Source of the DNA: a virus
Length of the DNA: 64,000 nucleotides
Reading direction: 5' to 3' (one strand)
Virus record (IMG/VR): IMGVR_UViG_3300044710_000064
Span: 5,060-69,059 of that record
How positions within the stretch are numbered: position 1 is the stretch's first letter; each line of letters opens with the position of its first letter. Shown piece after piece: positions 15,610-31,340 of this stretch. The notes beneath the pieces are model-generated. The model ran no database searches, was not told the DNA's origin, and saw only the letters and a program-made list of their open reading frames with translations. Position numbers and translations under genes: made by a program.

Positions 15610-16438
15610 CGAGAAGCGATGGATGAGCCGGGAGGAGCGGGAGGCGATACGTGAGAACTTGGAAGCTTACAGATCCAAAACACAGATCAAAGTATTGCTC
15701 GACTCCCACGACGCCTGCGAGCAAGAGCTTCGAGAGGCGCAAGCGATCATCACTTTCGTGTCTGACAAGTTGGCCGAAGCTGGTGGAACTCTTGATCCTA
15801 AATTAGCTCGCCAGATCGTGATGGATTTGCAAATCGACATCCGACAAGGCGGAGCTAATATCCTAACGTACTGGAAGGATGAGATATCCAGCCTGCGAGA
15901 GCAAGTCGCCGAACTGCAGCGGGATCGGGATAGGCTACGGGACCTTGTGAGTTGTGGAGATACACAAGATCCAAATTGGTGCTATGTCTGTGACCGTCCC
16001 GCAAACGACTGTGTTTGTGGCAAAGATCCCAGTGGACCGTTACCAAACTCTGCCTGTGTGAAGCACTGCCAAGAATGCGGAGAGCCCAACGGTAAGCACA
16101 AATCGAGTTGTCCCGCTAACTATGGCCCGATCTTCAAAACGTCAGGGGTAGACGCCGCGATGAAGGCGACCGACGAGGCTATCAAAATGACTAAAAGCTC
16201 CATGACATTGAACTTGAAACTCGATCTCGTGAAGGGAGTTGAAGGAAATTCTATCTACCTGAATGATTACCGGATCGCTGGTCCAAAGCCGTGGGGTGGT
16301 GGAACGGTACTCCAATCGTGGAGAGTCAAAGCCGCAAATGTACTGAAGGTCCTGGAGGAAGATCCGCCAGCTAAGTCGGCATCAAGTACCCCACTTAGGG
16401 GGAATGTGAAGGCGACCGTCGAGGCGAAGGAGAAGTAA
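15602..16438 (+). CDS. Mosaic hypothetical protein (coiled coil, Cys clusters, fused cassette)
   Basis: CYVC..CVC and CQEC..H...C; internal copy of the junction repeat followed by ATG 16187. Confidence 0.6.
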   Translation: MPDEKRWMSREEREAIRENLEAYRSKTQIKVLLDSHDACEQELREAQAIITFVSDKLAEAGGTLDPKLARQIVMDLQIDIRQGGANILTYWKDEISSLREQVAELQRDRDRLRDLVSCGDTQDPNWCYVCDRPANDCVCGKDPSGPLPNSACVKHCQECGEPNGKHKSSCPANYGPIFKTSGVDAAMKATDEAIKMTKSSMTLNLKLDLVKGVEGNSIYLNDYRIAGPKPWGGGTVLQSWRVKAANVLKVLEEDPPAKSASSTPLRGNVKATVEAKEK

Positions 16439-16439
16439 G

Positions 16440-16628
16440 ATGGACCGTGCGAAAATCATCTACTTATACGAACTGTATCGTGAATCCCGAATATCCGAGG
16501 ACGTACCGAACGTGCCGTTTCTAAGTCTGAGCCCACGAGAACAGATTGCGTGGGGCAAGTTTTGCAGAGACGTGGATAGGGAATATAGGTTTGCTCTAGC
16601 CCGCACCGCCGAGGCGAAGGAGAAGTGA
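16440..16628 (+). CDS. Hypothetical protein
   Basis: RBS supplied by the repeat; ends TAEAKEK. Confidence 0.6.
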   Translation: MDRAKIIYLYELYRESRISEDVPNVPFLSLSPREQIAWGKFCRDVDREYRFALARTAEAKEK

Positions 16629-17164
16629 TGGAACGCGAAAAGGTTTACAAAGCCATTGATTCCGAGCGATGTTTTCAGGACCGCAAATGGGGAACGGTTG
16701 AGAAGCACCCTCACGAAGTCGGCGGCTGGATCACGCTGATGGACAAACTGCTGCACGATGCCAAGACAGCGTGGGCGACATCTGACGGTGACGTCGGCGC
16801 TCTTAGAGAAATTCGCAAGGTAATCGCCGTAGGAGTAGCGTGTTGCGAGCAACACGGCGTTGATGAACGCTGGATTCACACGGATATTAAAGGCGAAGGC
16901 AGGAGGCCCGCGTTATGGCTGACGATCCAAAGCAGAGAATTGCAGAACTATCGAGGTTCGATCGATACAGGCAATCTGGCTGCGACTGGTGCGCCAAACA
17001 TCTGGCTGGCGATGATCGGGTTACGGACGTTCTGGAGCAATCGCATCCAAGGTTGGTTCATAAGGTATATCCCCCGCATGTCGATACACCATTCAGCCAA
17101 TATTTGGAATGCACTGCTCCACTGTCAGTTTACGAGTGGAGCGAGCAGAGAATTGCAGAACTAG
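16625..17164 (+). CDS. MazG-like all-alpha NTP pyrophosphohydrolase-like protein (3' part overlaps next gene)
   Basis: AIDSER..QDRKWG...IRKVIAVGVACCEQHG pattern in the first 80 aa. Confidence 0.5.
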   Translation: MMEREKVYKAIDSERCFQDRKWGTVEKHPHEVGGWITLMDKLLHDAKTAWATSDGDVGALREIRKVIAVGVACCEQHGVDERWIHTDIKGEGRRPALWLTIQSRELQNYRGSIDTGNLAATGAPNIWLAMIGLRTFWSNRIQGWFIRYIPRMSIHHSANIWNALLHCQFTSGASRELQN

Positions 17165-17463
17165 AGGAAGCGCTGCGGAGGGCTGAGGAAAGCTTAAATT
17201 GCGCCAATATCAACTTTGACAGGGTCAGTTGGCTGTGTACGCGACTGAAGGAGCACGTGACGGTGCTAGAAAAGGCGCTGCGAATGTTATCCAACGCAGC
17301 CACTTCGTTCATACATCTAGATGAGATATGGAACACTACAAGCTCTAACATCAAGGTCTTCGCTGGCATAATATCGAAATCCCAGCAGGCTCTCGCCCAC
17401 CCCACAGCGCCACATGCCGCTACTGCCGCGATGAAGGCGACCGCCGAGGCGAAGGATTTATGA
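16915..17463 (+). CDS. Coiled-coil scaffold protein, paralogue A
   Basis: RBS AGGAGG; MADDPKQRIAEL start shared with the 17857 ORF. Confidence 0.6.
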   Translation: MADDPKQRIAELSRFDRYRQSGCDWCAKHLAGDDRVTDVLEQSHPRLVHKVYPPHVDTPFSQYLECTAPLSVYEWSEQRIAELEEALRRAEESLNCANINFDRVSWLCTRLKEHVTVLEKALRMLSNAATSFIHLDEIWNTTSSNIKVFAGIISKSQQALAHPTAPHAATAAMKATAEAKDL

Positions 17464-17678
17464 GTAAGCCTACGAATTGGCCCGAAGGTGTCCCCTATAT
17501 AGATCCCGCTGTACGACATGTCGGGATAAGCACGCTACGTCTGATGCACGCAACTGCTGTCGCTCGACTTGAAGGAATTTTAGTTATTAGAGACGGAGAC
17601 GAGCCGATAGGCGTTCTGATGCCTTATGCGATTTATTTGGAAATGCAGCGGACCGCCGAGGCGAAGGAGAAAGTATGA
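17460..17678 (+). CDS. Hypothetical protein (weak Phd/YefM-like pattern)
   Basis: VGISTLR...LVIRDGDEPIGVLMPYAIY. Confidence 0.5.
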   Translation: MSKPTNWPEGVPYIDPAVRHVGISTLRLMHATAVARLEGILVIRDGDEPIGVLMPYAIYLEMQRTAEAKEKV

Positions 17679-17851
17679 AACAACTCGCTCTATTAGCCGC
17701 TATAATGCTGTATGTGGCTACACCGCCCCACGCAGATAAAGAAGCGTTTGGAAGGTTTCGATACGTAGATGGGGTATTGATAGGTCTAGCTATTGGGCTA
17801 CCCGATCGCCGAATTGCAACCGACATGCCAGTGTATCCAGAGGCCAAGTAA
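17675..17851 (+). CDS. Small protein with hydrophobic N-terminus (58 aa)
   Basis: Manual translation MKQLALLAAIMLYVATPPHAD...PEAK; RBS from the repeat. Confidence 0.5.
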   Translation: MKQLALLAAIMLYVATPPHADKEAFGRFRYVDGVLIGLAIGLPDRRIATDMPVYPEAK

Positions 17852-17856
17852 AAGTT

Positions 17857-18444
17857 ATGGCTGACGATCCAAAGCAGAGAATTGCAGAACTAGAAGAAGC
17901 GCTGCACTGTCCGAATTGCGGCAAGGAAATCATGGAAGTCACCAAGAAGGTCCTGGACACTGTCTGCGAGGACTGCTATATGGGCGACTATCAGTCAATG
18001 CGTACCGAAATCGCCACACTCCGAGCGGCGGCGCGAGAACTAGAAGAAGCGCTACGGAGGGCCGAGGCGCGATTAGCAGAGATTGAGTCCGCGCTGATTT
18101 ACATAGACCAAGCTTTATTGCTAGATAGATTCGCGGCCCTTCGCGCAACTGCTCAGGTCTGTATCGATGGTAGCTATGCTTGCCGTCTCGGTACGCTGCG
18201 TACTGCATTCTCCAAAGCAAAACAGGCTGGAGGGGTATTCAAAGGTGCGGGAATATTGGAGGCGCGCGTGAAGGTACTCGAAGAGGCACTGAAAAAAGCG
18301 GCAATCTTAATTGAGACTGATCCAGATTGCACCGAGTGGCTATACGCCTGGCAGCGAAGACATATTTCTGAGAAAATACGCGTCCTCGCCCAGCCCATGG
18401 CACCACAGGAGGCGAGCGAGACGAAAGCGCCACGCCAGCCATAG
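17857..18444 (+). CDS. Coiled-coil scaffold protein, paralogue B (CPNC..CEDC insert)
   Basis: 39-bp identity with 16912-16950 around the start. Confidence 0.6.
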   Translation: MADDPKQRIAELEEALHCPNCGKEIMEVTKKVLDTVCEDCYMGDYQSMRTEIATLRAAARELEEALRRAEARLAEIESALIYIDQALLLDRFAALRATAQVCIDGSYACRLGTLRTAFSKAKQAGGVFKGAGILEARVKVLEEALKKAAILIETDPDCTEWLYAWQRRHISEKIRVLAQPMAPQEASETKAPRQP

Positions 18445-19843: not shown

Positions 19844-20221
19844 CTACCGCTTGGTTTTTGGCTTGGGGCCACGTAGGGTCGCCGCGCTGATCTGATCATC
19901 CGTGGGAGCCAGGCCCGTCGCTTCCTGGACCAACTGTTTGAGTTTCACTATTATATCGAGCGCTTCACTCAGACGCCCGTCCACGCGCTGGTAGATTTCC
20001 TTCTGTCCAGCGTCAAGCGCCTCGAGCCTCTCCGTAACCCGCGATCCAGACTCGAGCAGCGCTGTGCGAACGTCTTCAGCCTTGGTCGCGACCTGCTCAA
20101 CCTGCTTCGCCACCTCTTCGGCCGCTTGCCTCGCAAACCGCCGTGTTACGGTTGCGGTGACAATTGGCCCAATGAGCGCCACGCCTCCGGTGATGAAGGC
20201 AACTGTGATGAGATCGCTCAT
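19844..20221 (-). CDS. N-terminal TM plus coiled-coil protein (holin-region type)
   Basis: ITVAFITGGVALIGPIVTA then coiled coil; VDGRLSE motif. Confidence 0.65.
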   Translation of the reverse strand: MSDLITVAFITGGVALIGPIVTATVTRRFARQAAEEVAKQVEQVATKAEDVRTALLESGSRVTERLEALDAGQKEIYQRVDGRLSEALDIIVKLKQLVQEATGLAPTDDQISAATLRGPKPKTKR

Positions 20222-20514
20222 TAGGTTGGGGAATCCTTCGGGGTAGCTTCAGTCTTGGGAGCTTCCTGGTGAAGTGTCGCACTGACATCAAGGCTCGACT
20301 TGTCTGAGATCGGCAAGCTTGGCGGAGTGTCCTTTGGCTTCAGGCGCGTGAAGAAGGAACCGGCGAAACCAGTCACCAGGCCTGAGAGCACAGTGAAAAG
20401 AGCCGCATCGTCCTTAAACCAGATCTTCGCCGCGAACAAGGCGCCGGTGAAGAACACCATGCCTGCGAGCAGCAGCAGGAGGACGCGGTCAAGCTTTTCA
20501 GCGTGGTCATCCAT
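20221..20514 (-). CDS. Two-TM membrane protein, holin candidate
   Basis: Two TMs, GFAGSFF, charged tail. Confidence 0.55.
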   Translation of the reverse strand: MDDHAEKLDRVLLLLLAGMVFFTGALFAAKIWFKDDAALFTVLSGLVTGFAGSFFTRLKPKDTPPSLPISDKSSLDVSATLHQEAPKTEATPKDSPT

Positions 20515-20517
20515 CGT

Positions 20518-20724
20518 TTACGGTCCTCTGTGCCATAACGGGGCCGACAAACCCGGTCCCAGCAAGCCCACTAAACTGAGAAGCCAGAGGATCGCTCCCA
20601 GGGCCAGCACGACGATAATGATCGTGCGAAACGGCTCCACGACGTGAGGCAGGACATATCGGCTAAATAGCCACCAGGCCAGTGCCAACACCAGCAGCAC
20701 AACCACGATCTGAATAATGCTCAT
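20518..20724 (-). CDS. Small two-TM membrane protein
   Basis: IIQIVVVLLVLALAWWL...PFRTIIIVVLALGAILWLL. Confidence 0.65.
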   Translation of the reverse strand: MSIIQIVVVLLVLALAWWLFSRYVLPHVVEPFRTIIIVVLALGAILWLLSLVGLLGPGLSAPLWHRGP

Positions 20725-20726: not shown

Positions 20727-20975
20727 TTAAATCTCCTCTGTCTTTGACTTTGGCAACTTATTCATCTTCCTCAAAAAGTAATCCCGCGTCAGTTCTACTG
20801 CCGAGCGAACGTGTCGCTTTAAATATAAATTCTCGATGTGAGCTTCCACTGTATTAACTGCGATGCCGAGTATCACGGCTATCTCTTTTCGAGCCTTGCC
20901 CATCACCATCAACCCCTCTATTTCGAGCTCTCGCGGCGTCAAAACTTCAACATAACCACATCGAGGGCATTTCAT
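20727..20975 (-). CDS. LuxR-family HTH regulator
   Basis: LTPRELEI..LMVMG...KEIAVILGIAVNTVEAHIENLYLK. Confidence 0.88.
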   Translation of the reverse strand: MKCPRCGYVEVLTPRELEIEGLMVMGKARKEIAVILGIAVNTVEAHIENLYLKRHVRSAVELTRDYFLRKMNKLPKSKTEEI

Positions 20976-21036: not shown

Positions 21037-21378
21037 TCACTGCGCCTTTACTGTTAACCCTGTCGGCGCGGTAGTGGTAGTAGGAATGACTGCCGTAACC
21101 TGATTCGAGTAGCCACTTTCCTCAGCGCCGACGAGCGCTGTCACCACGTAATAATAAGTGGTCGCCGCTGAGACCGTCGAATCTACGTACGTTGTCGAAG
21201 GTGAAAGCGGAGTCGTGGTGATGAGCGTGTAGGGACCGCCCGAAACCGCGGCTCGATACACGTTGTTGCCGGTGATCCCCGGCGTGACGGATTGCGTCCA
21301 ATTAAGCGTGGCTTCGTGCTGCGTCTGGGCGAAAGTCACAGAGCAGAAAAGTGCAAGAGCGAGAAGTACTTTGGTCAT
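21037..21378 (-). CDS. Secreted fibronectin type III domain protein
   Basis: Signal peptide VTFA-Q; LNW...GNNVYR...GGPY..YVD.TV...TYYYVVTA...ESGYSNQV. Confidence 0.85.
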   Translation of the reverse strand: MTKVLLALALFCSVTFAQTQHEATLNWTQSVTPGITGNNVYRAAVSGGPYTLITTTPLSPSTTYVDSTVSAATTYYYVVTALVGAEESGYSNQVTAVIPTTTTAPTGLTVKAQ

Positions 21379-21642
21379 TTATTTATCCTTTGCTGTCGCG
21401 GATGCGACGTTCGAACAATCGGTTTGGTCCGCCCCGGCGCAGACCTTATAGCTATAGACATCGCCGACTTTGAAGATAGTCGCGTCGTCTGTGTAGGTTT
21501 CAGCACTCAATTGAACGTTGGCTATTTTTGACCACGTTCCTTTCGGCCCCTCACGCCAGATATGGCCTATGGCAGTTTCGCTGCCAGACCATTGCCAGGC
21601 GAGCAGGAACGAGAAAAGCAAACCGGCGATTTTCTGTTTCAT
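21379..21642 (-). CDS. Secreted Fn3-like small protein
   Basis: Hydrophobic N-terminus; YTDD..YSYKVCA..CSNVASA. Confidence 0.65.
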   Translation of the reverse strand: MKQKIAGLLFSFLLAWQWSGSETAIGHIWREGPKGTWSKIANVQLSAETYTDDATIFKVGDVYSYKVCAGADQTDCSNVASATAKDK

Positions 21643-21827
21643 GTCTTCTGTTCTCCTTTCGATGTTGCGATGCTGACTTGCCAGCTATGCCCCGGCCCGA
21701 GAGCCTGACGGTAATCCTCGCCGTGGTTACCGCGCGCGTATCTAGGGAACCTAGATAGAAATCGCTCCGTCAGCAAACGCACCTGCTTTTCCAGACTGAG
21801 AATTCGCAACTCGCGCGATTCGGGCAA
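21639..21827 (-). CDS. Hypothetical protein
   Basis: TTG start; ATGA overlap with next gene. Confidence 0.4.
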   Translation of the reverse strand: MPESRELRILSLEKQVRLLTERFLSRFPRYARGNHGEDYRQALGPGHSWQVSIATSKGEQKT

Positions 21828-21844
21828 TTGATTTGTGGAGAACT

Positions 21845-23602
21845 TCAGACCGAATAGTTTCCGGTTCCTGATCCCAGGCTTTGGGTGAGACCTAATCCGA
21901 TATCAAGACCGCTGGTGTTTTTGGGTGATGCGAAGAAAAGCCAACTTCCAACGGCAGCCCCGGTATTGAGCAAGAAGGGACCTTGAAAAGAAACTATCCA
22001 GCCGTAAGGCGGATTCGGATCCAAGAACAGCGCGAACAGACTCGCCTTCAATGGCGGTCGATAACTCGAAAAGCTGTAAAGCGTCTGCGTTAAAGTTGCG
22101 AAGATCCTCGGCGGCGTCCAGTTGCCAGGCCCAAGACGTTGCGAGCGCCATATGACAGCGACCGAGGAAAGATACGGATCATTGACGCCGAACCAAAACA
22201 AATTCAACAAACCGGTGACCGGGTCCACGGCAAGGTTCATCGTGTAATCTTGCATGCCGATGGAACTTGCAATCAAGAACGAACCTACGAAGTCGTCCAT
22301 GCTCCCCACTGCAACTTGGTTCGTTGCATCGCCCACGTATTCTCTTGAGTAGGAGCCGCCTGAGATTATGTCCACAGCTGCGTAGCGGCCCGACGTTTTA
22401 ACGGGCATAGCGCAACCGGCTGACGGACTAGAAAAACACGAGGGCGGTCCGCCGAAACACGCGTTATATCTGAAAGGAGAATACTCAGGACTTCCCGAAG
22501 TGGCCGTTTGCAGTATCGGAGTTCCGATCCCGTTGTTGTATGCAAAGCCGTCATCGACAATGCCGAAGGTACCCGTGTCGGGTCCAGCCACGATACTGCA
22601 ATCCCGGTACATAAACGTCGGAGATGTACCGCTAGGTATGCCGAAATTTAAGTACGGATCGTTGGGGGATGGCCCATTCGCGCTGGGTCCGTCGCCAGCG
22701 TACGTAACAACCCCGCCAACGATCTTCTTTCCCCAGATTAAAAAATATACGAGCAGCGGGCTCGACGTGAAGCAGTACACGTTGCCGAGAGAATCTGAAG
22801 CTATACCGTCTGGAATTCCAGGTTGATAGTACATCGTGCCGTCGGTCGCCGCCTTGACGCCGAAAATTCCGTCGATGTACGTGCTTCCCATGTTCGTGGC
22901 TGTTCCCATCGACGGCCTCAAAAGCGTGGTGGCTGAACCGACGCCGGAGACGTTGTTCCAATATCCGGCCTGCTCTTCGTAATGGTCAACAGTGCTTCCG
23001 TCTATCCACAACACACCTCTGATGTTGTATCCCATCAAAGCGTGAACGGTGTTGTCATCGGTCGCCGTCATGAAGATTCTCGCAAACCCGCCGATGCATT
23101 CTCTTCCGTCGCCAGCGACCTTCGGGAAGACCGGCCAATGGACGCCGCCGCTGAGATTCAAAACGGTGTGAGTCGCGCCCGTCGCAGCCGTGTAATCCCA
23201 GCGCTTCGTGGAAAAGTTGAATCTGGACAGCGACAGGCCATATGCATAAGCAGTATCCCCGCCCCCACCGTGCGAAGGTGGCGGATAAGACATCCCGGAC
23301 AACACCGTTTTACTAGATGCCCAGAGCACGTAGGCGTAGTTTCGAGACGGTGTCAGGCAAGCCCCGTAGTTTCCGATGATGTCTGAAACGCTGTTGTCGG
23401 AACGCGGCCTGTTTGGGTTGGAGGTTAGATCCGCCACCGTCCAGTTGATTCCGTCAAGGCTCGTTCGCATCGACGGAAATCCGCCGCCGCTGACAGTTGG
23501 ACCAAACGCCCAGAACTGACCATTAATCTTCCAGACGCCTTGGACCGTTGGCATCGCATCCGGAGGTGGGCCCGAGGGCGTCGAGTAAATATAGCTCGGC
23601 AA
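21845..23602 (-). CDS. Beta-rich putative tail/receptor-binding protein
   Basis: 585 aa, G/S/T/Y rich; Asp-box-like SLDGINW; tail-distal position. Confidence 0.55.
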   Translation of the reverse strand: MPSYIYSTPSGPPPDAMPTVQGVWKINGQFWAFGPTVSGGGFPSMRTSLDGINWTVADLTSNPNRPRSDNSVSDIIGNYGACLTPSRNYAYVLWASSKTVLSGMSYPPPSHGGGGDTAYAYGLSLSRFNFSTKRWDYTAATGATHTVLNLSGGVHWPVFPKVAGDGRECIGGFARIFMTATDDNTVHALMGYNIRGVLWIDGSTVDHYEEQAGYWNNVSGVGSATTLLRPSMGTATNMGSTYIDGIFGVKAATDGTMYYQPGIPDGIASDSLGNVYCFTSSPLLVYFLIWGKKIVGGVVTYAGDGPSANGPSPNDPYLNFGIPSGTSPTFMYRDCSIVAGPDTGTFGIVDDGFAYNNGIGTPILQTATSGSPEYSPFRYNACFGGPPSCFSSPSAGCAMPVKTSGRYAAVDIISGGSYSREYVGDATNQVAVGSMDDFVGSFLIASSIGMQDYTMNLAVDPVTGLLNLFWFGVNDPYLSSVAVIWRSQRLGPGNWTPPRIFATLTQTLYSFSSYRPPLKASLFALFLDPNPPYGWIVSFQGPFLLNTGAAVGSWLFFASPKNTSGLDIGLGLTQSLGSGTGNYSV

Positions 23603-23604
23603 GG

Positions 23605-24189
23605 TTAGTCCTGCGAAATAACAACCCGCACTTGAACATCACCCGTTGAGGCAAATGTTGGAGTCCCGCGTGCAATGAGAATTCCATAAAGCGTCGTCCC
23701 GGTCGCCAGCACAAATCTGAGATCGAGAAGGCCCTGTCCCAAACCTCCTCCCGAATTCGCGCCGGTCCAGGCGTTGACGGACACGAAGCCGATGGATCGC
23801 ACACGATCCGCCGCGTTCAGAGCGAGGAGGGTCTTGTCCGTGACAGTAGTCGCCGTAGGATCGGAATCAAAGAACCACACGTCGAATTGGGTCTGGTTGT
23901 TTGAAGCATCGGTAATCAGAACCGAATTGATAATGCCGCCGGTTTTTGCCGTTACTCCATCGGGTACTGTCCGGATCGCACCCGCGAATGTCAGAAGCCC
24001 TCCGACGCAATTCCCAGAAGCATAAGCTGAGCTCGCCGTGACGGTCTGAACCTGAGACAGACAGACCTTGAGCTGGCTTGTGTTCGCGACGTCATCAACG
24101 ATGTGGTGTGGGTAGGTATTTCCACCGATGATGCTGACCCACAGCGGCACAATGGTGCCGGTGCCGTCGCGAACCTGTAAGATGGACAC
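23605..24189 (-). CDS. Putative virion fibre-associated beta-sandwich protein
   Basis: AYASGNCVGGLLTF...GGIINSV...TLYGILIARGTPT. Confidence 0.6.
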   Translation of the reverse strand: MSILQVRDGTGTIVPLWVSIIGGNTYPHHIVDDVANTSQLKVCLSQVQTVTASSAYASGNCVGGLLTFAGAIRTVPDGVTAKTGGIINSVLITDASNNQTQFDVWFFDSDPTATTVTDKTLLALNAADRVRSIGFVSVNAWTGANSGGGLGQGLLDLRFVLATGTTLYGILIARGTPTFASTGDVQVRVVISQD

Positions 24190-24204
24190 TGAAGTTTTCC
24201 TTTT

Positions 24205-26049
24205 CTAGTGCTGATACCAGGACAGAAGGGTTACTGCGGGAGCGAGACTTGACTGATTGGCATCGCATGCAAAGCCGACCTGGTTAGGTGAAGCGAGGTA
24301 GTCTGTTCGAGAAATGCTGAATACCTGATAGAAATTCTGCCCATCTGCCGAACCGTAGAACTTGAAGTTTGTTCCGTCATCTTTGACCTGCATCCAGGCG
24401 AGAGAACTTGGAGGGAAATCGTATTGAGAAGTCAAAGAATAACTGGCGCTGAAAGAAGTCGCGCTCGCGTACTTCGCGACGTTCAAGCTGTTGTAGCCGG
24501 TGTTCGACGACAAATAGAACACCACCATCTTACCCGTCCCTGAATCCCGGAAGACCAGCGAAGCCGTTGGAGTATGAGCGCTGCCAGTAGGTGAAAGTTG
24601 GGGAAGTAAAGCAACGGTAATGAAGTAAGGAGTCGAGGGAGCGGTGATTACCCGCGCGTTGATGTCTACCCCGGAGTTCGATTCGCACTGAAGGAATATC
24701 CCGCCGTTCGAAGTGCTCATTGAGGCCGCGTTCTGATTCACCCAGGACCAACTCGGAGTTGTCGGATCGACCATTGGAAAGACGGGACCCCAGGGGACCC
24801 AGACATTACTTGCGCAGCGGAAAACGTAAAAGCTGTTGGTCGGAAACTCAAGATCGCCGTTAGTGCAGGTTCCGGGATAAGAGCCTGACGCGTTTGAGTT
24901 CGTGACGTTGCCGCCGGCAAGACCTGAAGGCACTGCGCCATACTGCACGGTGATTGTGACGTTTGGAGTTCCGACGCTGCCGGTTGTCACAACTTGGTAA
25001 TCTACAAGGTCACCTTGCGCAGCCGTCGCGGTGTGGGTGACGTCGTCGCAGGTTGTGGCAGATGCACCCGACACAGTACAAGTGAGAGATGTGCTCGAAC
25101 CGGCGTCGCGAAACGTCACGGCGACTGAGTTCCCACCACCTGGTGCCGCGCTGAGTTTGACGTACATCGCGCCGATCGTTGCAGCCGTAGGACTCGGAGC
25201 ACTGACGGTAGCCTCAGTTGAGTTCGGAGCGGCATTCCCAAAGATCGGCGCATATTGAGTTCCCGAGAGAGTCGGCGCCGCGGCGTAGTAAGAAGCCACC
25301 CCACCGGAACCTGCGGCGTAAGTCAGCGCGCCAGTGCTATTGACGCCCGTGGCGAACTGACCAGGACCCGCAGTCGAAGGCTGCACGTCGCGTGCCGCGC
25401 CGTCGTCTGACGTGCAGGAAAGTCCACGAATCGTCACTCCATCCGAGGCGACTTCGAACTCCTGCGTTGTTCTGACGTTCAACGTGGGCGAAACTACACA
25501 TATGTGGGTAACGCTGCCACCTGCGACAGTGTAGCCCGTGACTGCTCTTCCTCCCGTACCGTCCTGAAGGAAGGTTAAAGAGAAGTGCTGCCCGGCTTGA
25601 GGGTGCGTGAAGGTGACGCTCGTTACGTTAGCCGTCATCGCGGCCATCTCGCAGCGGTTGCAGGTTGACAAGTCAAACGTCGGAGTAGCGCTGAAACTCA
25701 TCGGCGCGGGCGCCGGACCGGCGAAACTCTTCGACGCACTGAGTTGCCCCGTCGAGCCATTTTGGATCAGGTTAGAATTCCCGATCGCGCTCGAACCGGT
25801 CCACAGCGAGAAGGTATTGGCCGCACCGCTTCCCGTCACACCGCTGATAGAGGTAAAGGGATTCTCAACAATCCCCGCGATGCAGATTCGGTATGTCCCA
25901 TCCGTGATGAGATAGACGTTCCCGGTGCCCGAGCAAGAGCCGGGAGCGCTCGCCTGAGGGGGCCCGGCGGTATGCCAATTAGGATCTCCGCGGCCTTGCG
26001 AAAACACACTTGGAGAAATCAGGACCAGCAATAGCGCAAGTTTTTTCAT
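24205..26049 (-). CDS. Fibre-like protein with Sec signal peptide
   Basis: MKKLALLLVLISPSVFS-Q; QDGTGGR fibre motif; 12 Cys; lectin-like C-terminus (SADGQNF). Confidence 0.7.
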   Translation of the reverse strand: MKKLALLLVLISPSVFSQGRGDPNWHTAGPPQASAPGSCSGTGNVYLITDGTYRICIAGIVENPFTSISGVTGSGAANTFSLWTGSSAIGNSNLIQNGSTGQLSASKSFAGPAPAPMSFSATPTFDLSTCNRCEMAAMTANVTSVTFTHPQAGQHFSLTFLQDGTGGRAVTGYTVAGGSVTHICVVSPTLNVRTTQEFEVASDGVTIRGLSCTSDDGAARDVQPSTAGPGQFATGVNSTGALTYAAGSGGVASYYAAAPTLSGTQYAPIFGNAAPNSTEATVSAPSPTAATIGAMYVKLSAAPGGGNSVAVTFRDAGSSTSLTCTVSGASATTCDDVTHTATAAQGDLVDYQVVTTGSVGTPNVTITVQYGAVPSGLAGGNVTNSNASGSYPGTCTNGDLEFPTNSFYVFRCASNVWVPWGPVFPMVDPTTPSWSWVNQNAASMSTSNGGIFLQCESNSGVDINARVITAPSTPYFITVALLPQLSPTGSAHTPTASLVFRDSGTGKMVVFYLSSNTGYNSLNVAKYASATSFSASYSLTSQYDFPPSSLAWMQVKDDGTNFKFYGSADGQNFYQVFSISRTDYLASPNQVGFACDANQSSLAPAVTLLSWYQH

Positions 26050-26053: not shown

Positions 26054-29000
26054 TCAAATGACGGGGATGTACTGAGAATTGTCGGGAGAGTTGGAATTGA
26101 AATTCATCTGACCAAGCGGGACTCCGGCTCCTGCGGTGTTGCCCGTTCCGGGAATGGTCCCGCTTCCAGTTATGGAACTCGTCCCCGGAACCGTCAGACT
26201 CGGAACCGGCGTGACGATCGCAGTCTGGAGAATGGCCGAATATGTCCCACTTCCATCCCCACTCACCTGGTTGAATTGCAGCCTGTCGTTTCGGTTGAAG
26301 GTTATGGGATTCGACGCGAATGCGGCAGTTCCTATTTGACCTGTCGAGCCGGCCGGAATCTTGACGGGCGCCGGGAAGATAGAAGCCGTGACGTTCGTCT
26401 GCCGGTTCGTCCAGATAATGTCGATATATTCGTCAATGGCGGGAGTATCGAGTATCTCAAAGACCAGATCGATAGCGACGGAATTGTTCCGCACATTGAC
26501 AGGAAGGAATCTGGCGCTTCCAGTCGAATCCCACACGCCCCAAGTGTAGGGGCGGTCGAGTTGCAAACCTCCCGTTCCGTAGATGTAGATCATTCGGAAC
26601 GGAGCGTCGAGCTCGCCGGGCTCGACATTATTCACGTCCACCGTGAAACCACCGAGCATCATTTGCTGCCGCTGATAATTAGCGACGGGAAAGACGATCT
26701 TAGAAAGAGTTCCTAGGACGCTGTTCTTAATCGGGGTCGAATCGACCGAACTTCTCCATGCTCGTTCTTCCACTACCCAGATCGAATCGGCTCCCAGTTG
26801 AATGGGCTGGTCGAGCGTCCAACTGATGTTGTTATTTGCAACGATCTGGGCGGTTTGTCCCCTGTTCGTGCCGGCAATGACACGGATGATTTCGCCCACT
26901 TCAAAGTTCGTGATCAGGCCCGTGTGAGGTTTTGTTGGATTGGTCGCGTTCGAAAGACCTGCGTCCGTGATGAGGTTGGGATTACCGGAGTTATCGTAGC
27001 CCTGGAAACAGACCACGAAAGTATCCCCGGCCGTTGGGACTTGAGCGTTGGTGTAGAACTTCGGAACCCCTCCGCCTTGCAGCATGGAAGCATCCCGATC
27101 AAGCGTGAATGTTCCGGTGGAAGGATCAAATCCAGTGATAGTGAAATTCTGAAACGGCGTCGAGCCATTCAGCCTTCCGATGATCATGAGCGGTCGGCCT
27201 TCCCAGTTGTCCTGCCCCGCCACGTCAACGCATTCCGATGAAACGATCTGGTTTCCGCTTACCGTGTCTATCGCAGCTCCGAGCACTCCTCCGTGAATCA
27301 GGATCTTGCCTTTGATCCGAACCTTTTGAACGTTGGAATTCGGGAGTGCCCATGTGGTTCGCGCAGGTTTGTAGGTTCTTACGAAAATGGCCTGGTAGCT
27401 GATATTCACCGGAGCGTACGAGTTGCCGTTCGGAGACAGGGTGCCTGTCTGGGCTTCGGTGATTTGATCGTCCAATCCTCCATTGACGACTCCAATGAAC
27501 ATCACGTAGCTAGTGATTCCGGTCACCTGTGGCCAGTCGATATTGCCGATGGTGAACGAATAGACTCCCTGGATGATGATGAGATCCGATGGTGGGGTTA
27601 CTTGCCCAGTCGTGTCATTCTTTCCGCAGACCGCAACGCTGTAGGTTGGACCCGGCCCAAGCCCCGGCGTCCCTCCGCCGCTCTTTACGAACCCTTTCTT
27701 GATTTCGGGGGGAACACAATTCGGAATGTACTGATTGATCGGTTGGTTTCCTGTGATGACGACGTTTACTTGGATCGTTCCGTCTCCCAAGACCTGATAG
27801 GATTGCGCGGTGTCGAAGGTGTACTCCGATGGATAAACTGCGTCAGTCGAAAGAGCTTGAACGTAGTACGGTGACCATTGTCCGAGAGGTTCGGGGTAAT
27901 AAAGAATCGGAAGCGGTTGCGGTAAGACATCTTGCGGTTTCGGCCCCGCAACGAGATCGTACATCGACGGCGTAACCGTCTTCGCCTGGATGGTGATCGA
28001 CCAGTCTTTATGGAGTGTCCATTTCTGAATTCGAAAATGACTCGTGGTCGAATCCCAGACAAGCCCGGCTCCGCTAACGTCTCCGGTTGGAGTCGTGAGA
28101 CGGAAAGCATTCCACGCATCGACGTCGTAACCTCCCGGAACATCCGGGTGGGTCATCGACACAACTTGGCCGGCCTCGGTCTCTAATGCCAGAATGGTTG
28201 TCTTCCAGGTAGCTTTGCGCGCGGCCGAGAACTCGCGGAACTGATTCGTGGTGTCGAAGGCCTGTCTGATCCCCCCAACTTCTTCTCGGGTTCTGGTTGC
28301 CGCAAGTCTCAGGCCCTGTGAAAGCGTGCAGCATCCCACGATATGTTGACTAGCCGTGAGAGGAGAACCGCCGCGGTTGAAGTAGTTTGCGTGATCCTTG
28401 TCGTAATATTCCGCCGTGTTGGCTTGGTATTGATAGGCTTGATCCGCGTAATTGATGATGAGCCGTTCAAAGTTCGCTTCGATGGGGCTCAGGGTCAAAG
28501 ACCGAAAGAGAATATTTCCGAGCGTGAAGGCTGAAACAGCACTGGCATTTTCACGAATCCCGAATTTGATGGTCCCGAACTCGAAGATGAAGAACCCGAG
28601 CGCACACGCGAGGATTTCCGTGAGTTGATCCCGCAAGGGTTTCTGTTGGGACAGGATTCCCTGAAACTGAAACTGAGTTTCGAAAGTCGTTATGTCTCCG
28701 ACCAAAGGATGTACGGGCTTGTCTGCTATCTCTCCAGTAGCCGTTCCGTCTCCCGCGTAGAGTGATGGAAGATTCAGGAAAGCAACGGCAGCGGTCAGAT
28801 TACGCTGCATGCTCAATGCCCGGATGTAGGTATTCGCCGCTACCCAGAAAGGATTTGTGAGGCCGGCGTAATTGGTTCCCGTGGGATTCGCGGCGTTGTA
28901 AACGAGCCCCTGCAATCCCTGGGCGATAGGAACGGTCATGGAGTGCTGCTCCGGAATGGTCGGGTTTATTCCGCTGGGCTTTGCATACCGAAGTTCAACG

Positions 29001-30718
29001 AAAGCTGTACCCGCCGCCGTCTGCGGTCCCCATACCGAATAAGTTGGATTCGAACCCGGAGCGGTTTGCCCGAGACTGAAACTTGGCGAAGTCGGGTTGG
29101 CGAAGTCGTCCACGTAGGACAATGGTTGCGGATCGGCGCCCGGCACTTCGCGAAGTCCCAGATCGACGCTCGTCTTCACGTTCAATTGCGAATCTACGGA
29201 GAAGCCTTGCGGAGGAAAGCCGTCTCCTAAGGGAGCAACGATGTATTTGTATCCGTCCGCATTGGTGTAAACCGACCAGCCTTCGTAAAGGCCAAGGGGG
29301 CCCGCTCCGACAATTCCGATCATGTCGAAGAAGTCGCCTTCGTCTCGAACATCTGCTACGACGGCGTTGACAAAAAATGCTTTCCCTGGATTTTGCCCTT
29401 GATCACCACCGCTCGCTGGGCCCGCCGATCCGTCATTGCACCAAATATCCGCTAGCGCATTGCCCCACATGCTGTCGGAAACCAGAGAAGTCGCTGTAAC
29501 GAGATTGCGATTGAACCCCGCAAATCCCGTTGCGTTGTTCAGGATGTTGACGCCCTGCGGTTGCGCGGGATGTCCCCCAAAGAAACCGAGTTTCTCAGGA
29601 ACTCTCTGGCTCGTCAAAAGCGGCGACATGCCGTGAGCCTGACACCCATTGGCACTATCGAAATAGTAATCGCACGAGTTTCTATCAGCCGCGAACGTCA
29701 CGCCCGCCGAACTCGTGCCGGTCTGAATTGAGCCCTGGGTCGAGAAGGGACACCACACCCCATCATCGAAAGTCTTCCAGCATTGCCGGGAGATCGTCCG
29801 ATTCGGGTACAGCATGTTGACCTGGTAGAGGCCGTCTGTACACTGAACCGTGAATTGCGCCGAGCCGTCATGGACGAAATTGATGATTGAGCCCTTCCAG
29901 AGCTGAAGGATGGTTTGACTCTGGACGTGGTAAAGGCAAAGGTCAATCGAGGCGTACTTCAGATCCGTGTCATTCGCTAATTGGCCCATGACCCGGTCCG
30001 CGTTTCCAAAAGTGAACTGGACGTTATCCGCCGGTGTTCCTCGCATGGGATCGGCGATGCTCTGCGTCATGATGACGTCGGAGCCCGGTTCTCCCAGTCC
30101 GATGATTCGCGGAAGATAGAGCTGAGTCCCGACCGTGCAACGTCGGTCCGACAAATAGATGTCTGGCACAGCAGTTTCTCTGACGCGGATATGAATCAGC
30201 GGGATGATTTGCTGGACTTGGGAAAGGAGCGCCGCCTGCAAGGTGGAATTGGGAAAACGGAGGCAGGTAGCAGCGACGGGATAGACCGGAGCCGAGAGAG
30301 GGTTTGGACACTCAATGAAATTGAAGCCGGATTGACAGGCATTCGCGAGTTCGGAAACTGAGAGCGGCTGAGTTTCGAAGATGACCGTGTAAGGCGAGGT
30401 TGCGTGATCGGATTGCGGCGCGTTGTAGGTGAAGGTCTGGAAGGAGCCCTCGACGGCTTCGAAGAACTCGAACAGGTTCGAGCGGTCCGTGCGGCTGATG
30501 ACCTGTTTTCGAAAGGGAAATTTCCTGGGGCCAATCCCTACTTGGAAACGCTGATAGGAGAGCGTTGCCGCTTCACCGAATCTGTGTTCAATGATCGGCC
30601 ACGGTCTATCCATTCCATAGCCGAAGTCTGAGACCATGCGCGAAGACACGGATAGCGGCCACGTCAAACCACTGGCGACGGGAACCGGGACCGCGATTCT
30701 GCCGATGGTATCCGGCAT
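26054..30718 (-). CDS. Tail tip mega-protein (gpM/Dit-like, gpL-like and gpJ-like regions fused)
   Basis: 1554 aa; FFEAVEGSFQTF Dit-like; CWK..CPF...CDY...C Cys cluster; LTEILAC/IINYADQ..YQ hub-like region. Confidence 0.75.
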   Translation of the reverse strand: MPDTIGRIAVPVPVASGLTWPLSVSSRMVSDFGYGMDRPWPIIEHRFGEAATLSYQRFQVGIGPRKFPFRKQVISRTDRSNLFEFFEAVEGSFQTFTYNAPQSDHATSPYTVIFETQPLSVSELANACQSGFNFIECPNPLSAPVYPVAATCLRFPNSTLQAALLSQVQQIIPLIHIRVRETAVPDIYLSDRRCTVGTQLYLPRIIGLGEPGSDVIMTQSIADPMRGTPADNVQFTFGNADRVMGQLANDTDLKYASIDLCLYHVQSQTILQLWKGSIINFVHDGSAQFTVQCTDGLYQVNMLYPNRTISRQCWKTFDDGVWCPFSTQGSIQTGTSSAGVTFAADRNSCDYYFDSANGCQAHGMSPLLTSQRVPEKLGFFGGHPAQPQGVNILNNATGFAGFNRNLVTATSLVSDSMWGNALADIWCNDGSAGPASGGDQGQNPGKAFFVNAVVADVRDEGDFFDMIGIVGAGPLGLYEGWSVYTNADGYKYIVAPLGDGFPPQGFSVDSQLNVKTSVDLGLREVPGADPQPLSYVDDFANPTSPSFSLGQTAPGSNPTYSVWGPQTAAGTAFVELRYAKPSGINPTIPEQHSMTVPIAQGLQGLVYNAANPTGTNYAGLTNPFWVAANTYIRALSMQRNLTAAVAFLNLPSLYAGDGTATGEIADKPVHPLVGDITTFETQFQFQGILSQQKPLRDQLTEILACALGFFIFEFGTIKFGIRENASAVSAFTLGNILFRSLTLSPIEANFERLIINYADQAYQYQANTAEYYDKDHANYFNRGGSPLTASQHIVGCCTLSQGLRLAATRTREEVGGIRQAFDTTNQFREFSAARKATWKTTILALETEAGQVVSMTHPDVPGGYDVDAWNAFRLTTPTGDVSGAGLVWDSTTSHFRIQKWTLHKDWSITIQAKTVTPSMYDLVAGPKPQDVLPQPLPILYYPEPLGQWSPYYVQALSTDAVYPSEYTFDTAQSYQVLGDGTIQVNVVITGNQPINQYIPNCVPPEIKKGFVKSGGGTPGLGPGPTYSVAVCGKNDTTGQVTPPSDLIIIQGVYSFTIGNIDWPQVTGITSYVMFIGVVNGGLDDQITEAQTGTLSPNGNSYAPVNISYQAIFVRTYKPARTTWALPNSNVQKVRIKGKILIHGGVLGAAIDTVSGNQIVSSECVDVAGQDNWEGRPLMIIGRLNGSTPFQNFTITGFDPSTGTFTLDRDASMLQGGGVPKFYTNAQVPTAGDTFVVCFQGYDNSGNPNLITDAGLSNATNPTKPHTGLITNFEVGEIIRVIAGTNRGQTAQIVANNNISWTLDQPIQLGADSIWVVEERAWRSSVDSTPIKNSVLGTLSKIVFPVANYQRQQMMLGGFTVDVNNVEPGELDAPFRMIYIYGTGGLQLDRPYTWGVWDSTGSARFLPVNVRNNSVAIDLVFEILDTPAIDEYIDIIWTNRQTNVTASIFPAPVKIPAGSTGQIGTAAFASNPITFNRNDRLQFNQVSGDGSGTYSAILQTAIVTPVPSLTVPGTSSITGSGTIPGTGNTAGAGVPLGQMNFNSNSPDNSQYIPVI

Positions 30719-30734: not shown

Positions 30735-30953
30735 ATGGAACTGCTGTACATCATAGTAATTCTTCTTTGTGCCGTCCCTTGTATTTGGGGAATCAACTTG
30801 ATTGTTAATCACCGTTATGCTCGGGGAAGCATTCTGGTGCTGCTCTCGTGCGGCGTTGTTGCGAGCGTCTACAGTTCCCTTCTGTTTGGGGACCCTTTGT
30901 TCTGGCGTGCTCTGTGGTTTGCCTTTAGTGGTAGGGGTAATCCATATCGCTGA
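30735..30953 (+). CDS. Antisense moron, small membrane protein
   Basis: TATGCT-N6-ATG leaderless arrangement; hydrophobic segments. Confidence 0.6.
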   Translation: MELLYIIVILLCAVPCIWGINLIVNHRYARGSILVLLSCGVVASVYSSLLFGDPLFWRALWFAFSGRGNPYR

Positions 30954-31041
30954 CTTTACGGTGGAAGTAGCAGCCCCACCTTAAACCTCAATCAACTCCA
31001 GACCAGTAGTGCTTCTTCCAGGCATCAGCTATGCTGGCGTT

Positions 31042-31218
31042 ATGAGCAATGGATGGGTCATAGCCGTGATTTGTTTTTGCACTGTAGGCGCATTCACCGG
31101 ACTAGCCACCGCTTCGGGTGCGACTACGCAAGAATTAAAAACCGTCGGGGCTGCTGTCGAATGGCTTTCGGTCGGATTTCTCTTGGCATTCGGTCTGTGG
31201 GGAATACTTGATAGATAG
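31042..31218 (+). CDS. Antisense moron, two-TM protein
   Basis: TATGCT (31030-35)-N6-ATG; two hydrophobic helices. Confidence 0.55.
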   Translation: MSNGWVIAVICFCTVGAFTGLATASGATTQELKTVGAAVEWLSVGFLLAFGLWGILDR

Positions 31219-31223
31219 TTGGG

Positions 31224-31340
31224 CTAAGGAAGCTCGCGCCAGTGCTTGACGCCTTCAATCAGAAGAACGACGACGAGCTCTAGCGCAAGGATGAGAACCG
31301 TTCCGCCGATCACGCGCGCTACCGTCAGAACTGTTTTCAT
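31224..31340 (-). CDS. 38-aa single-TM peptide
   Basis: Manual translation MKTVLTVARVIGGTVLILALELVVVLLIEGVKHWRELP. Confidence 0.4.
   Translation of the reverse strand: MKTVLTVARVIGGTVLILALELVVVLLIEGVKHWRELP

Follow-up and report, generated by a model that had tools for sequence, protein, structure and literature searches.

The virions of tailed phages are assembled in the cytoplasm, their fibres normally have no signal peptides, and disulfides form in the periplasm. To our knowledge, no tailed phage makes tail parts outside the cytoplasm. The coat proteins g3p and g8p of filamentous phages are virion parts with leaders and periplasmic disulfides, but inovirus particles form by extrusion at the membrane, and the phage studied here is tailed. 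Exported phage proteins are also encoded beside host-recognition genes, as are lambda Lom (between J and stf), phi80 and N15 Cor, and P1 Sim; lambda lom, whose exported product is not part of the virion, presumably occupies exactly the position of g614, the gene considered here. A literature search found no paper on Sec leaders together with paired cysteines on tail-fibre-type proteins of tailed phages.

According to the available text of PMC9586334, phage T5 encodes a lipoprotein, Llp, by which the receptor FhuA is blocked. Lom, Llp, Cor, and Sim resemble our case in that a leader-bearing gene adjoins the tip or receptor-binding gene and its product acts outside the cytoplasm. They differ in being small barrels or lipoproteins unrelated to fibres, whereas g614 has fibre domains, has no lipobox or barrel match, and follows the tip gene in tight coupling.

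Leader-bearing proteins next to tail genes occur in two cultured phages of Cellulophaga baltica, phi10:1 (gp091-094, KC821618) and phi46:3 (gp079-082, KC821622). These are consecutive large proteins, each with a classic leader at its start and Q after it, as in g614. In the phi10:1 record, gp091-094 are named "structural protein", annotated from experimental MS/MS proteomics; the phi46:3 set is named in RefSeq as structural protein, pectate lyase, virion structural protein, and tail fiber protein. These phages differ from ours in their Bacteroidota host, in their families (Assiduviridae and Pachyviridae), and in having only 0-2 Cys per protein. A tblastn search of g614 against 50,697 phage records gave two matches, neither of them from Cellulophaga, and revealed no sequence relation to the Cellulophaga set.

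Signal peptidase I (SPase I) leaders that expose Gln are also known from siphovirus prophages of Porphyromonas gingivalis. The accessible part of PMC10367356 presents these genes as possible outer-membrane modifiers of unknown function and does not describe them as fibre-type, unlike g614. The underlying Q-rule (PMC5837995; PMC10653852) is stated, in the portion of the second source available, to be exclusive to Bacteroidetes. In our phage, by contrast, SD sites are in use (they precede 35 of 78 starts, compared with 10 of 78 controls), and the named relatives of its g113 protein come from Acidobacteriota MAGs.

The window analyzed here is a stretch of 64,000 nucleotides from the IMG/VR record IMGVR_UViG_3300044710_000064; the features given below with coordinates lie on its minus strand. 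The encoded lambda-type terminase, portal, and protease identify a tailed phage, and an integrase gene shows that it is temperate; it is an uncultured temperate lambda-like siphovirus of soil. A NusG-like antiterminator (62111-62620; PF02357, E = 5.6e-13; phrog_6386, E = 2.2e-24) heads a minus-strand late block of about 43 kb. Between its gene and the small terminase gene lie the late genes o380 (56103-57245) and o721 (57766-59931), both leader-bearing by our heuristic, with o164 between them (56103-59931); a third leader-bearing protein outside the tail module is o155. Promoter-like sites numbered 8 (7.1 ± 2.9 in shuffled sequences) and terminator-like sites 11 (15.0 ± 4.7), for consensus sequences that may not fit the host.

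Downstream of the 2004-aa tape-measure gene (phrog_15478) and a 149-aa gene lies an ORF of 1554 aa without a leader and with 18 Cys (26054-30718). Searches of Pfam, PHROG, NCBIfam, and PDB gave zero matches for its product, of which residues 1-1399 are 46-47% identical to same-position proteins of three related contigs (L042, L043, and L044, the last two near-identical). We take it as the probable tail-tip (J-position) protein, an assignment that rests on synteny and on these homologues.

The five consecutive genes that follow form the cassette of interest. As the preliminary description had claimed, g614 (24205-26049; 614 aa, 12 Cys) comes directly after the tip gene, with a gap of 4 nt between the stop of one and the start of the other, and begins with a Sec leader followed by Q. 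From its leader, folds, and gene order it is predicted to be an exported mosaic fibre-type lectin protein. The next gene in the fibre slot, g194 (23605-24189), encodes a leaderless orphan with zero family matches in Pfam, PHROG, and NCBIfam. The product of g585 (21845-23602), also leaderless, has one homologue (50% identity) and a single structural lead, to a BNR/sialidase-like beta-propeller, from weak structure-atlas rows (TM ≤0.54) on a poor model (pLDDT 0.44). The small orphan g87 (21379-21642), preceded by AGGAG, has a leader-like start and 2 Cys, and is followed with a gap of 0 nt by g113 (21037-21378). A LuxR/GerE-type HTH regulator (20727-20975; PF00196, E = 1.1e-13) separates the cassette from three small membrane proteins of 68, 97, and 125 aa (19844-20724), recognized by hydrophobic segments in their translations. 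Family searches gave no match for these three, which are a possible lysis cassette. A crude n/h/c-region heuristic scores 52 of 560 ORFs from related loci and 8 of the 70 ORFs of the window as leader-like; against this background, the three leader-like genes among the five of the cassette have a binomial P of about 0.007.

Leaders were called by this heuristic of our own and by reading the sequences, in 163 homologues of g614, in the related loci, and in the window. The signal peptide of g614 (residues 1-17; 25999-26049) consists of an n-region MKK, an h-region LALLLVLISP, and a c-region SVFS. Its N-terminus reads MKKLALLLVLISPSVFS and then Q, with V-F-S as the -3/-1 pattern, so that it has the n-, h-, and c-regions of a textbook SPase I leader (a positively charged n-region, an uncharged hydrophobic h-region of 8-15 residues, and small residues at -3/-1), and all 12 Cys are in the mature part. 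These three regions were likewise found in g113 (signal peptide 21328-21378), whose N-terminus is MTKVLLALALFCSVTFA followed by Q (MTK, VLLALALFCSV, and T-F-A). The start of g87, MKQK followed by IAGLLFSFLLAW, has the n- and h-regions, with a putative cut between LAW and Q that is non-canonical because of W at -1. In the window, A, S, or W followed by Q ends the leader in five of six leader-like proteins.

Homologues of g614 and g113 retain a leader as such, but not its exact sequence. Eleven of the 16 non-self matches of g614 have leader-like starts. In a 33-sequence alignment of g113, the 32 relatives keep the form of the leader and its A-Q end while the letters change, and 45 of the 120 listed homologues are leader-like, including nearly all of the close full-length ones. 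The first polar residue past the h-region is Q in 21 of 32 leader-like homologues of one set and in 30 of 46 of another. Together with the cysteine counts given below, these comparative data indicate that the leaders are functional. Compared with the lipobox consensus, g614 has no Cys at the cut site, and the context of Cys12 in g113 (A-L-F-C) is not a lipobox. No outer-membrane barrel family of Pfam or NCBIfam was matched by the cassette proteins.

We found that cysteines track the leader. The clearest count comes from module A of g614, described below: all 14 leader-bearing copies have at least two Cys, as does 1 of 18 leaderless copies (32 copies; Fisher p = 3.2e-8). In this count, L002 and the second L030 gene were re-classed as leader-bearing on better starts after their Cys had been seen, and the class of L001 and L023 was assigned by visual inspection. 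Locus L030 carries a leaderless and a leader-bearing copy side by side. Among the 163 homologues of g614, an even number of Cys was found in 29 of 32 leader-bearing and 65 of 131 leaderless proteins, and Cys content was 1.52% and 0.71%, respectively. Taking all ORFs of 33 loci and this genome, leader-like proteins had 50 even and 16 odd counts and the others 161 and 200 (p = 3.5e-6). Cys324 and Cys334 of module B occur in 7-9 of 17 leader-bearing rows and 3 of 34-38 leaderless rows. The earlier suggestion of export and oxidative folding is thus well supported, indirectly, by the conservation of the leader as a property and by this covariation, and the leader-bearing proteins of the fibre slot very probably fold outside the cytoplasm.

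The mature part of g614 is a mosaic. Module A (residues ~105-225; 25375-25737) is a tail-fibre tip domain of about 100 aa, recognized by invariant alignment columns from P123 onwards and by the conserved Cys184 and Cys212, and present in 34 viral loci. Proteins without a leader carry it as their C-terminal tip; of 17 such proteins, 6 match PHROG "tail fiber protein" families, and in two of these the match spans module A itself. Module B (residues ~250-370; 24940-25302; AF2 pLDDT 83-94) is a beta-sandwich that contains Cys324 and Cys334; some homologues have it in up to 7-8 copies. The C-terminal domain (residues ~425-614; 24208-24777; phrog_19068) is, in its model (pLDDT 84-98), of the ConA-like lectin/glucanase fold that is found in siphophage receptor-binding domains. 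In structure alignments with VIA-align it gave Z 19.4 to 3mep (rmsd 2.6 Å, 166 residues), 16.9 to CBM66, 13.6 to the receptor-binding domain of phage TM4 gp23, and about 13 to legume lectins. The fold also occurs in a Douge baseplate protein and in J-1 Dit CBM2, and Foldseek viral structure matches include minor tail and collagen-like phage proteins.

Curated families hardly reach g614: Pfam gave no match at E ≤ 0.01 (DUF1349, at E = 0.093, is below the cut-off), and Laminin_G_3, GH43_C2, and DUF1349 were each matched by 1 of 111 homologues. At E ≤ 0.001 it matched 6149 representative proteins, the best 150 of which mostly cover the C-terminal region. The description of g614 as fibre-like was borne out only in part: AF2 models residues 250-614 as two confident beta-sandwich domains, monomeric rather than an intertwined trimer, while residues 18-246 have pLDDT <50. 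Leaderless fibres and receptor-binding proteins (TM4 gp23 RBD, 9n6a; Douge, 8zdo; J-1 Dit CBM2, 5ly8) have the domains of g614 and its place in the tail operon, but they are without the leader and the module-A Cys pair and are assembled in the cytoplasm.

Both small proteins had been described as signal peptides with Fn3-like domains. For g113, a leader followed by a single Fn3 domain (21064-21318), the model confirms the fold: mean pLDDT is 86.9, and about 96 across residues 21-105, and the top Foldseek matches are Fn3 domains, such as 3mpc (TM 0.70) and 6zva (TM 0.74). Its own Pfam fn3 score (E = 0.16) is below the cut-off, and its homologues include JGI-named Fn3 proteins and proteins with precomputed PF00041/PF25833. 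For g87 only the leader-like start stands. Fn3 is unsupported: hhalign against the g113 family gave a probability of 1.7%, and Pfam gave no match even at E ≤ 10. A search of viral contigs found no relatives of g87.

In other viral contigs, leader-bearing relatives lie directly after tail-tip proteins (L021 and L033) or among myovirus fibre genes (L010), often in runs of 2-5 such genes. The closest relatives of this tail, L042, L043, and L044, have only leaderless proteins after the tip gene. That slot holds fibre-like proteins in them, for example one of 775 aa with a collagen-like start, and neither significant similarity nor a common docking domain was found between these proteins and g614, g194, or g585. 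Because these contigs carry leaderless proteins, this tail works with fibres made in the cytoplasm, and the lineage is not marked by the leader.

Our best explanation, which we hold tentatively and at somewhat less than even confidence, is that the slot after the tip gene carries a cassette of late proteins, three of them Sec-exported and disulfide-bonded, and that g614 joins the tail at lysis. The proteins g614, g113, and probably g87 would be made as Sec preproteins, exported into the periplasm of the host, a diderm soil bacterium, and cut by signal peptidase I, which would leave g614 and g113 with an N-terminal Gln; disulfides, impossible in the cytoplasm, would then stabilize them. Here g614 would be a mosaic host-recognition protein that combines a poorly modelled N-terminal part of 230 residues, including the tail-fibre tip module, with the beta-sandwich and the ConA-like sugar-binding domain. 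Capsid and tail would be assembled in the cytoplasm while g614 waits, folded and oxidized, in the periplasm, and most likely, we infer, it reaches the tail tip only once holin-type lysis has joined the two compartments. What the data show is the gene order, the leaders, the fold, and the covariation of cysteines with leaders; export, disulfide bonds, and docking on the virion are inferences from them. The small Fn3 proteins may be periplasmic partners or decorations. Fibres can join fibreless particles in vitro; we know of no pathway for docking after export.

The preliminary description had named two fates, joining to the virion at or after lysis and remodelling of the host surface. The position in the tail operon, the domains in common with tail fibres, and the MS/MS-annotated leader-bearing proteins of phi10:1 speak for the first. 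The leaderless-only slot of the three same-tail relatives and the dissimilarity of g614 to their proteins speak against it. Counting against the whole explanation are the leaderless candidates for host recognition (g194, g585, and the tip protein with its divergent C-terminus), the position of lambda lom, and the monomeric modelling of residues 250-614. With similar reserve, as a possibility that falls short of a probability, we suggest that there are tailed phages, infecting diderm bacteria of soil and water, whose host-recognition gear is made by a second, extracytoplasmic route, with g614 a periplasm-matured side fibre and with domains that switch route by gain or loss of a leader and a Cys pair. 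On this route, fibre-type proteins would be exported by Sec, oxidized and capped at an N-terminal Gln in the periplasm, and attached at lysis to tails built in the cytoplasm.

It is also possible, though rather doubtful, that g614 and the other proteins are exported but never enter the virion and act instead on the cell envelope during infection or lysogeny. There g614 could be a periplasmic or surface lectin that masks or binds a glycan receptor, for superinfection exclusion or to keep progeny off debris, or a surface conversion factor; this would follow the pattern of T5 Llp, phi80 Cor, P1 Sim, and lambda Lom, here with fibre domains put to a new use. The evidence on leaders and disulfides agrees equally with such a role, and the leaderless slot of the relatives makes g614 look inserted between the tip gene and the leaderless g194 and g585. 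The integrase gives a temperate lifestyle, leader-bearing proteins occur outside the tail module (o380, o721, and o155), and the pair of module-A genes in L030, one leaderless and one leader-bearing, is as expected of a fibre plus a decoy. Precedents are the blocking of FhuA by Llp and the possible outer-membrane modifiers of P. gingivalis prophages, as far as the available texts go (PMC9586334; PMC10367356).

However, no lipobox and no outer-membrane barrel match was found, and in a diderm a Sec leader alone leads to the periplasm, not to the surface. The 4-nt gap and, for the consensus sequences used, the lack of an own promoter or terminator above chance suggest late expression at a structural level, not expression in the lysogen. 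A search of the 69-kb genome for a second copy of the g614 domains found none, also among the virion genes, so g614 is not a decoy of the phage's own fibre or of another of its virion proteins. With 597 mature residues and an unmodelled N-terminal part of 230 residues, it is also unlike the known small exclusion proteins.

We consider it very unlikely that the leaders are not used for export, with assembly in the cytoplasm and the N-terminal helix serving for docking or trimerization or being removed by a phage protease. Cytoplasmic assembly is the textbook case for tailed phages, and the "signal peptides" of major capsid proteins are taken as a prohead-protease cut in the available text of PMC10367356, but this would leave unexplained the Cys pairs and the even counts found only with a leader, the conserved small-x-small then Q cut site, and the same leader on a stand-alone Fn3 domain of 96 residues. 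A start of g614 farther downstream, with a leader that is never translated, as in the database copy (a 425-aa call from residue 190), is hardly credible, since homologues align upstream of residue 190 and carry their own leaders, module A spans residues 105-225, a scan of codons 2-190 found no SD-preceded in-frame start (and hence no leaderless isoform), and the distance to the tip gene would grow from 4 nt with the long ORF to about 570 nt with the short call.

If the proteins act on the envelope, they would be exclusion or release factors of a new class, made from reused fibre domains. If instead fibres mature in the periplasm, as we tentatively prefer, completion of the virion would depend on the Sec, signal-peptidase, and Dsb systems of the host and on lysis, and the receptor-binding proteins of many uncultured phages would not be obtainable in active form by cytoplasmic expression. 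The style of the leader, here Gln after the cut, would be usable in host prediction. The evolution of fibres would then include a switch of compartment, marked by a leader and a Cys pair, and the covariation, in which the same domain occurs with or without leader and Cys, gives a concrete and testable handle on it.

After the tape-measure gene, the late operon runs through a 149-aa gene, a 793-nt stretch and the 1554-aa tail-tip gene (J position; 26054-30718) into five further minus-strand genes, named here by their length in amino acids. The first, g614, starts 4 nt after the tip gene, and g194, g585, g87 and g113 follow after gaps of 15, 2, 202 and 0 nt. Leader-like starts (putative Sec/SPase I signal peptides) were found in g614, g87 and g113; g194 and g585 have none. 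These calls were made with a crude n/h/c-region heuristic and by reading the sequences by eye. By the heuristic, leader-like starts occur in 8 of the 70 greedy ORFs of the window and in 52 of the 560 examined in related loci, and the binomial P for three leader-like genes among five consecutive ones was ~0.007. The preliminary description had reported a gene directly after the tip gene, with a leader, then Q, and 12 Cys, and this was confirmed: g614 starts with MKKLALLLVLISPSVFS, followed by Q, and all 12 Cys lie in the mature part.

Within the 793-nt stretch that separates the tip gene from the 149-aa gene, three short ORFs (72, 69 and 65 aa; 30735-31564) lie on the plus strand, antisense to the late operon, and the first two are very hydrophobic; they are a moron-like insertion of membrane peptides. 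At the other end of the slot, a LuxR-type regulator and then three small membrane proteins come after g113. This regulator, encoded at 20727-20975 (minus) at the junction of the exported cassette and the membrane proteins, is an 82-aa HTH protein of the LuxR/GerE type and has a CxxC near its N-terminus.

Searches of Pfam, PHROGs and NCBIfam placed neither the tip protein nor g614, g194, g585 and g87 in a named family, and the sole family match in the slot was phrog_19068 (unknown function) on g614. PDB sequence searches with profile A3 and the tip protein returned nothing at E<=1. The g194 protein is an orphan, and g585 may be a BNR/sialidase-like propeller, judging from a poor Atlas model.

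The AlphaFold2 model of g614, from 111 aligned sequences, had a mean pLDDT of 71. It consists of the leader helix, an unmodelled part (residues 18-246, pLDDT <50), a confident beta-sandwich (residues 250-370) and a confident C-terminal domain, which in the model has a ConA-like lectin/glucanase fold. This domain matched 3mep (Z 19.4, rmsd 2.6 A, 166 residues), the C-terminal domains of GH43 enzymes (Z 18-19), CBM66 (Z 16.9), the Douge baseplate protein (Z 13.7), the TM4 gp23 receptor-binding domain (Z 13.6), legume lectins (Z ~13) and the J-1 Dit CBM2 (Z 12.8). Foldseek against viral models returned uncharacterised Caudovirales proteins, collagen-like proteins and minor tail proteins of Gordonia phages. 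At E<=0.001 an exhaustive search linked g614 to 6149 representative proteins, and the best 150 of these, proteins of 220-1900 aa, match mostly on the C-terminal domain. An Mtd_N-type fibre start, an idea taken from a short Cys-flanked N-terminal motif and from Mtd_N clusters in the Atlas (score 0.85), was dropped; Pfam Mtd_N was absent at E<=10 from g614 and from five homologues with or without a leader, and at E<=0.001 from 111 homologues. T9SS C-terminal sorting domains and PEP-CTERM tails gave no family match, and none was seen by eye.

Two Fn3-like proteins with signal peptides had also been claimed, and g113 has both features. It starts with MTKVLLALALFCSVTFA, followed by Q, and consists of the leader and one Fn3 domain (pLDDT ~96 over residues 21-105; the top fold matches are Fn3); many of its 127 homologues are named Fn3 by JGI. 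A lipoprotein reading through Cys12 was rejected because the residue before this Cys is F. For g87 the Fn3 label was supported neither by Pfam nor by a profile comparison with the g113 family. This protein starts with MKQKIAGLLFSFLLAW, then Q; the proposed cut puts W at -1, which is non-canonical, and no relatives were found in viral contigs.

Three lines of comparative evidence, namely conserved form, Cys parity and covariation of leader and Cys pair within module A, argue that the leaders are real. Eleven of the 16 non-self database matches of g614 have a leader-like start that ends small-x-small and is followed by Q, as do 21 of 147 representatives of its C-terminal domain family. Leader-like starts occur in 45 of 120 g113 homologues, nearly all the close full-length ones among them; in an alignment of 33 rows the leader sequence drifts, A17 is nearly invariant and Q comes next in most rows. 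Mature Cys content was 1.52% in the 32 leader-like homologues of g614 (of 163 in total), with an even Cys count in 29, compared with 0.71% and even counts in 65 of the other 131 (Mann-Whitney p=2e-8). A wider count took in every ORF of 100 aa or more from this genome and 33 non-duplicate loci. The number of Cys was even, odd or zero in 50, 16 and 4 leader-like ORFs and in 161, 200 and 99, respectively, of the remaining ones (Fisher p=3.5e-6).

Module A, the tail-fibre tip domain at residues ~105-225 of g614, was compared in an alignment of g614 with copies from 30 non-duplicate viral loci, leaving out the near-copies L003, L009, L011 and L017. All 14 leader-bearing copies had at least two Cys, at one of two fixed pair positions, compared with two Cys in 1 of 18 leaderless copies (L024, at other positions; Fisher p=3.2e-8); here L002 and the second L030 gene, leaderless at first, had been re-classed as leader-bearing after a search for better starts, L001 and L023 were assigned by eye, and under the original classes the contrast was weaker and still clear. 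As predicted from these lines of evidence, export and disulfide formation are very likely for g614 and g113, for which the earlier proposal of exported, oxidatively folded parts would stand; for g87 they are favoured with less assurance.

Module A was detected in 34 viral loci and in only 3 loci among 185,579 species genomes (GTDB), all three in MAGs of different phyla, and it is thus a phage module. Where a protein has no leader, the module forms its extreme C-terminal tip; among 17 proteins of this kind, 6 have matches to PHROG 'tail fiber protein' families, which in L005 and L022 cover module A itself. The leader-bearing relatives are encoded within structural modules: directly after a J-like tail protein (phrog_1101) as the last gene in the operon (L021), directly 3' of a tail protein gene (L033), amid myovirus baseplate and fibre genes (L010), and after a head-tail adaptor (L025). 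Their neighbours often have leaders as well; runs of such genes, counted by eye, comprise five genes in L035, four in L001, and two each in L033, L025, L023, L004 and L006. Domains of the g113-like Fn3 type were present in 75 viral loci and were leader-like in 39 of the 70 analysed.

Leader-bearing proteins annotated as structural occur in cultured phages. In Cellulophaga phi10:1 (KC821618), gp091-094 are annotated in the record as 'structural protein' on experimental MS/MS proteomics; all four have a leader and then Q, and so does the pectate lyase gp095. The same start is found in gp079-082 of Cellulophaga phi46:3 (KC821622), and RefSeq names one member of this set a tail fiber protein. Full-text literature searches found no paper on Sec leaders of tail-fibre-type proteins in tailed phages. 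The nearest one, as far as its available text goes, concerns Porphyromonas gingivalis prophages, whose leader genes are read there as possible outer-membrane modifiers (PMC10367356).

Our preferred reading, which we hold tentatively, is that g614 is a sugar-binding, side-fibre-type protein that would mature in the periplasm and be picked up by the tail when the cell lyses. A close rival, somewhat doubtful but still to be reckoned with, is that g614 acts on the envelope and is no part of the virion. Three contigs with the same tail (L042, and the near-identical L043 and L044) match the major tail region, the end of the tape measure, the 149-aa protein and the tip protein, the last with 46-47% identity over residues 1-1399. 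Their post-tip proteins (280 and 274 aa in L042; 76, 775 with a collagen-like start, 77 and 539 aa in L043/L044) are all leaderless, none resembles g614, g194 or g585, and no shared docking domain was found for g614. The position is therefore a variable fibre slot, and the tail works with cytoplasmic fibres, which favours the envelope reading. The same reading draws on the leaderless candidates for host recognition that the phage has, and on lambda lom, an exported, non-virion protein in the same position. It is weakened by the 4-nt junction, which suggests that g614 is co-expressed with the tail proteins, by promoter and terminator scans at chance level, and by the finding of no second copy of the g614 domains within the genome, so that g614 is no decoy of a virion protein of its own phage. 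The scans, together with an unremarkable cassette GC of 0.54-0.57, like the rest of the window, also gave a moron reading of the cassette no support from composition or signals.

That the leader of g614 is present but unused for export is improbable beside the Cys parity and the module A covariation. The source gene call gives a 425-aa protein from residue 190, but homologues align from ~residue 105 and have leaders of their own, and codons 2-190 hold no SD-preceded in-frame start, so the long ORF is the real gene and a wrongly annotated start is highly improbable. A leaderless isoform from an internal start was rejected on the same lack of an SD-preceded start.

The phage is a temperate, lambda-like siphovirus. 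It encodes a tyrosine integrase (6759-7982), a gpA-type large terminase, a small terminase, a lambda-family portal, an S49 prohead protease, a major head protein (phrog_1005, E 2.5e-73) and a 2004-aa tape-measure protein; family searches revealed no endolysin in any part of the window. The late genes are all on the minus strand in a single block, from a NusG-like antiterminator (62111-62620) down to ~19.4 kb. TerL is at most ~42% identical to that of any cultured phage, which places this phage far from cultured ones. The source, an IMG/VR virus record of which the window covers bases 5060-69059, has 69,059 bases and is rated ~90% complete; the only public run containing the sequence is a soil-metagenome DNA run, which may be its source, and no RNA run is listed as containing it.

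The early region (plus strand) encodes a DUF5131 protein (5800-6762; E 1.5e-86), a weak Mom-like protein (9149-9619) and a Dam-type methyltransferase (12116-12610), which may serve DNA modification. Successive early plus-strand ORFs in 15488-18444 share a near-identical C-terminal peptide (…EAKEK at 16438, 16628 and 17678; …EAKDL at 17463), and MADDPKQRIAEL is the common start of two ORFs (16915, 17857), a pattern that points to gene-junction modules in several copies or to duplications of recent date.

A group of six late orphan genes (52350-61762, minus) separates the antiterminator from the small terminase gene. Two of their products, o721 and o380, carry a leader with Q after it, and o721 also has a CADCH motif (CxxCH, haem-c-type) and a weak CBM-like match (E 0.0017). 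The o549 protein contains 12 Cys and begins with a hydrophobic segment that lacks a positive charge, and o699 is a low-complexity protein rich in Ser, Ala and Thr. A 155-aa protein encoded beyond the late block, upstream of the antiterminator (63370-63837, minus), opens with the leader-like sequence MKKLIAIALCFFVPFSTVAG and is hydrophobic again around residue 85.

Five of the six leader-like window proteins (21037-26049, 56103-59931) have Q directly after the predicted cut, and among leader-like homologues Q is the first polar residue past the h-region in 21 of 32 and in 30 of 46. In the available portions of two papers, Gln after the leader cut is described as the 'Q-rule' of Bacteroidetes (PMC5837995) and is said to be exclusive to them (PMC10653852). 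SD cores precede 35 of 78 starts, compared with 10 of 78 internal controls, and the named g113 relatives come from Terriglobales, Acidobacteriia and Bryobacteraceae MAGs. SD use and these relatives suggest that the host is a diderm soil bacterium, possibly one of the Acidobacteriota. Set against the Q-rule pattern, this would mean either that the rule extends beyond Bacteroidota or that the host call is wrong.

In our reading of the module A comparison, the same fibre domain would fold in two compartments and gain disulfides where a leader is present. In L030 (8356-9986), a leaderless module A without Cys and a leader-bearing module A with the Cys pair are encoded by adjacent genes, so that this locus offers a ready-made pair on which the two-compartment idea could be tested.
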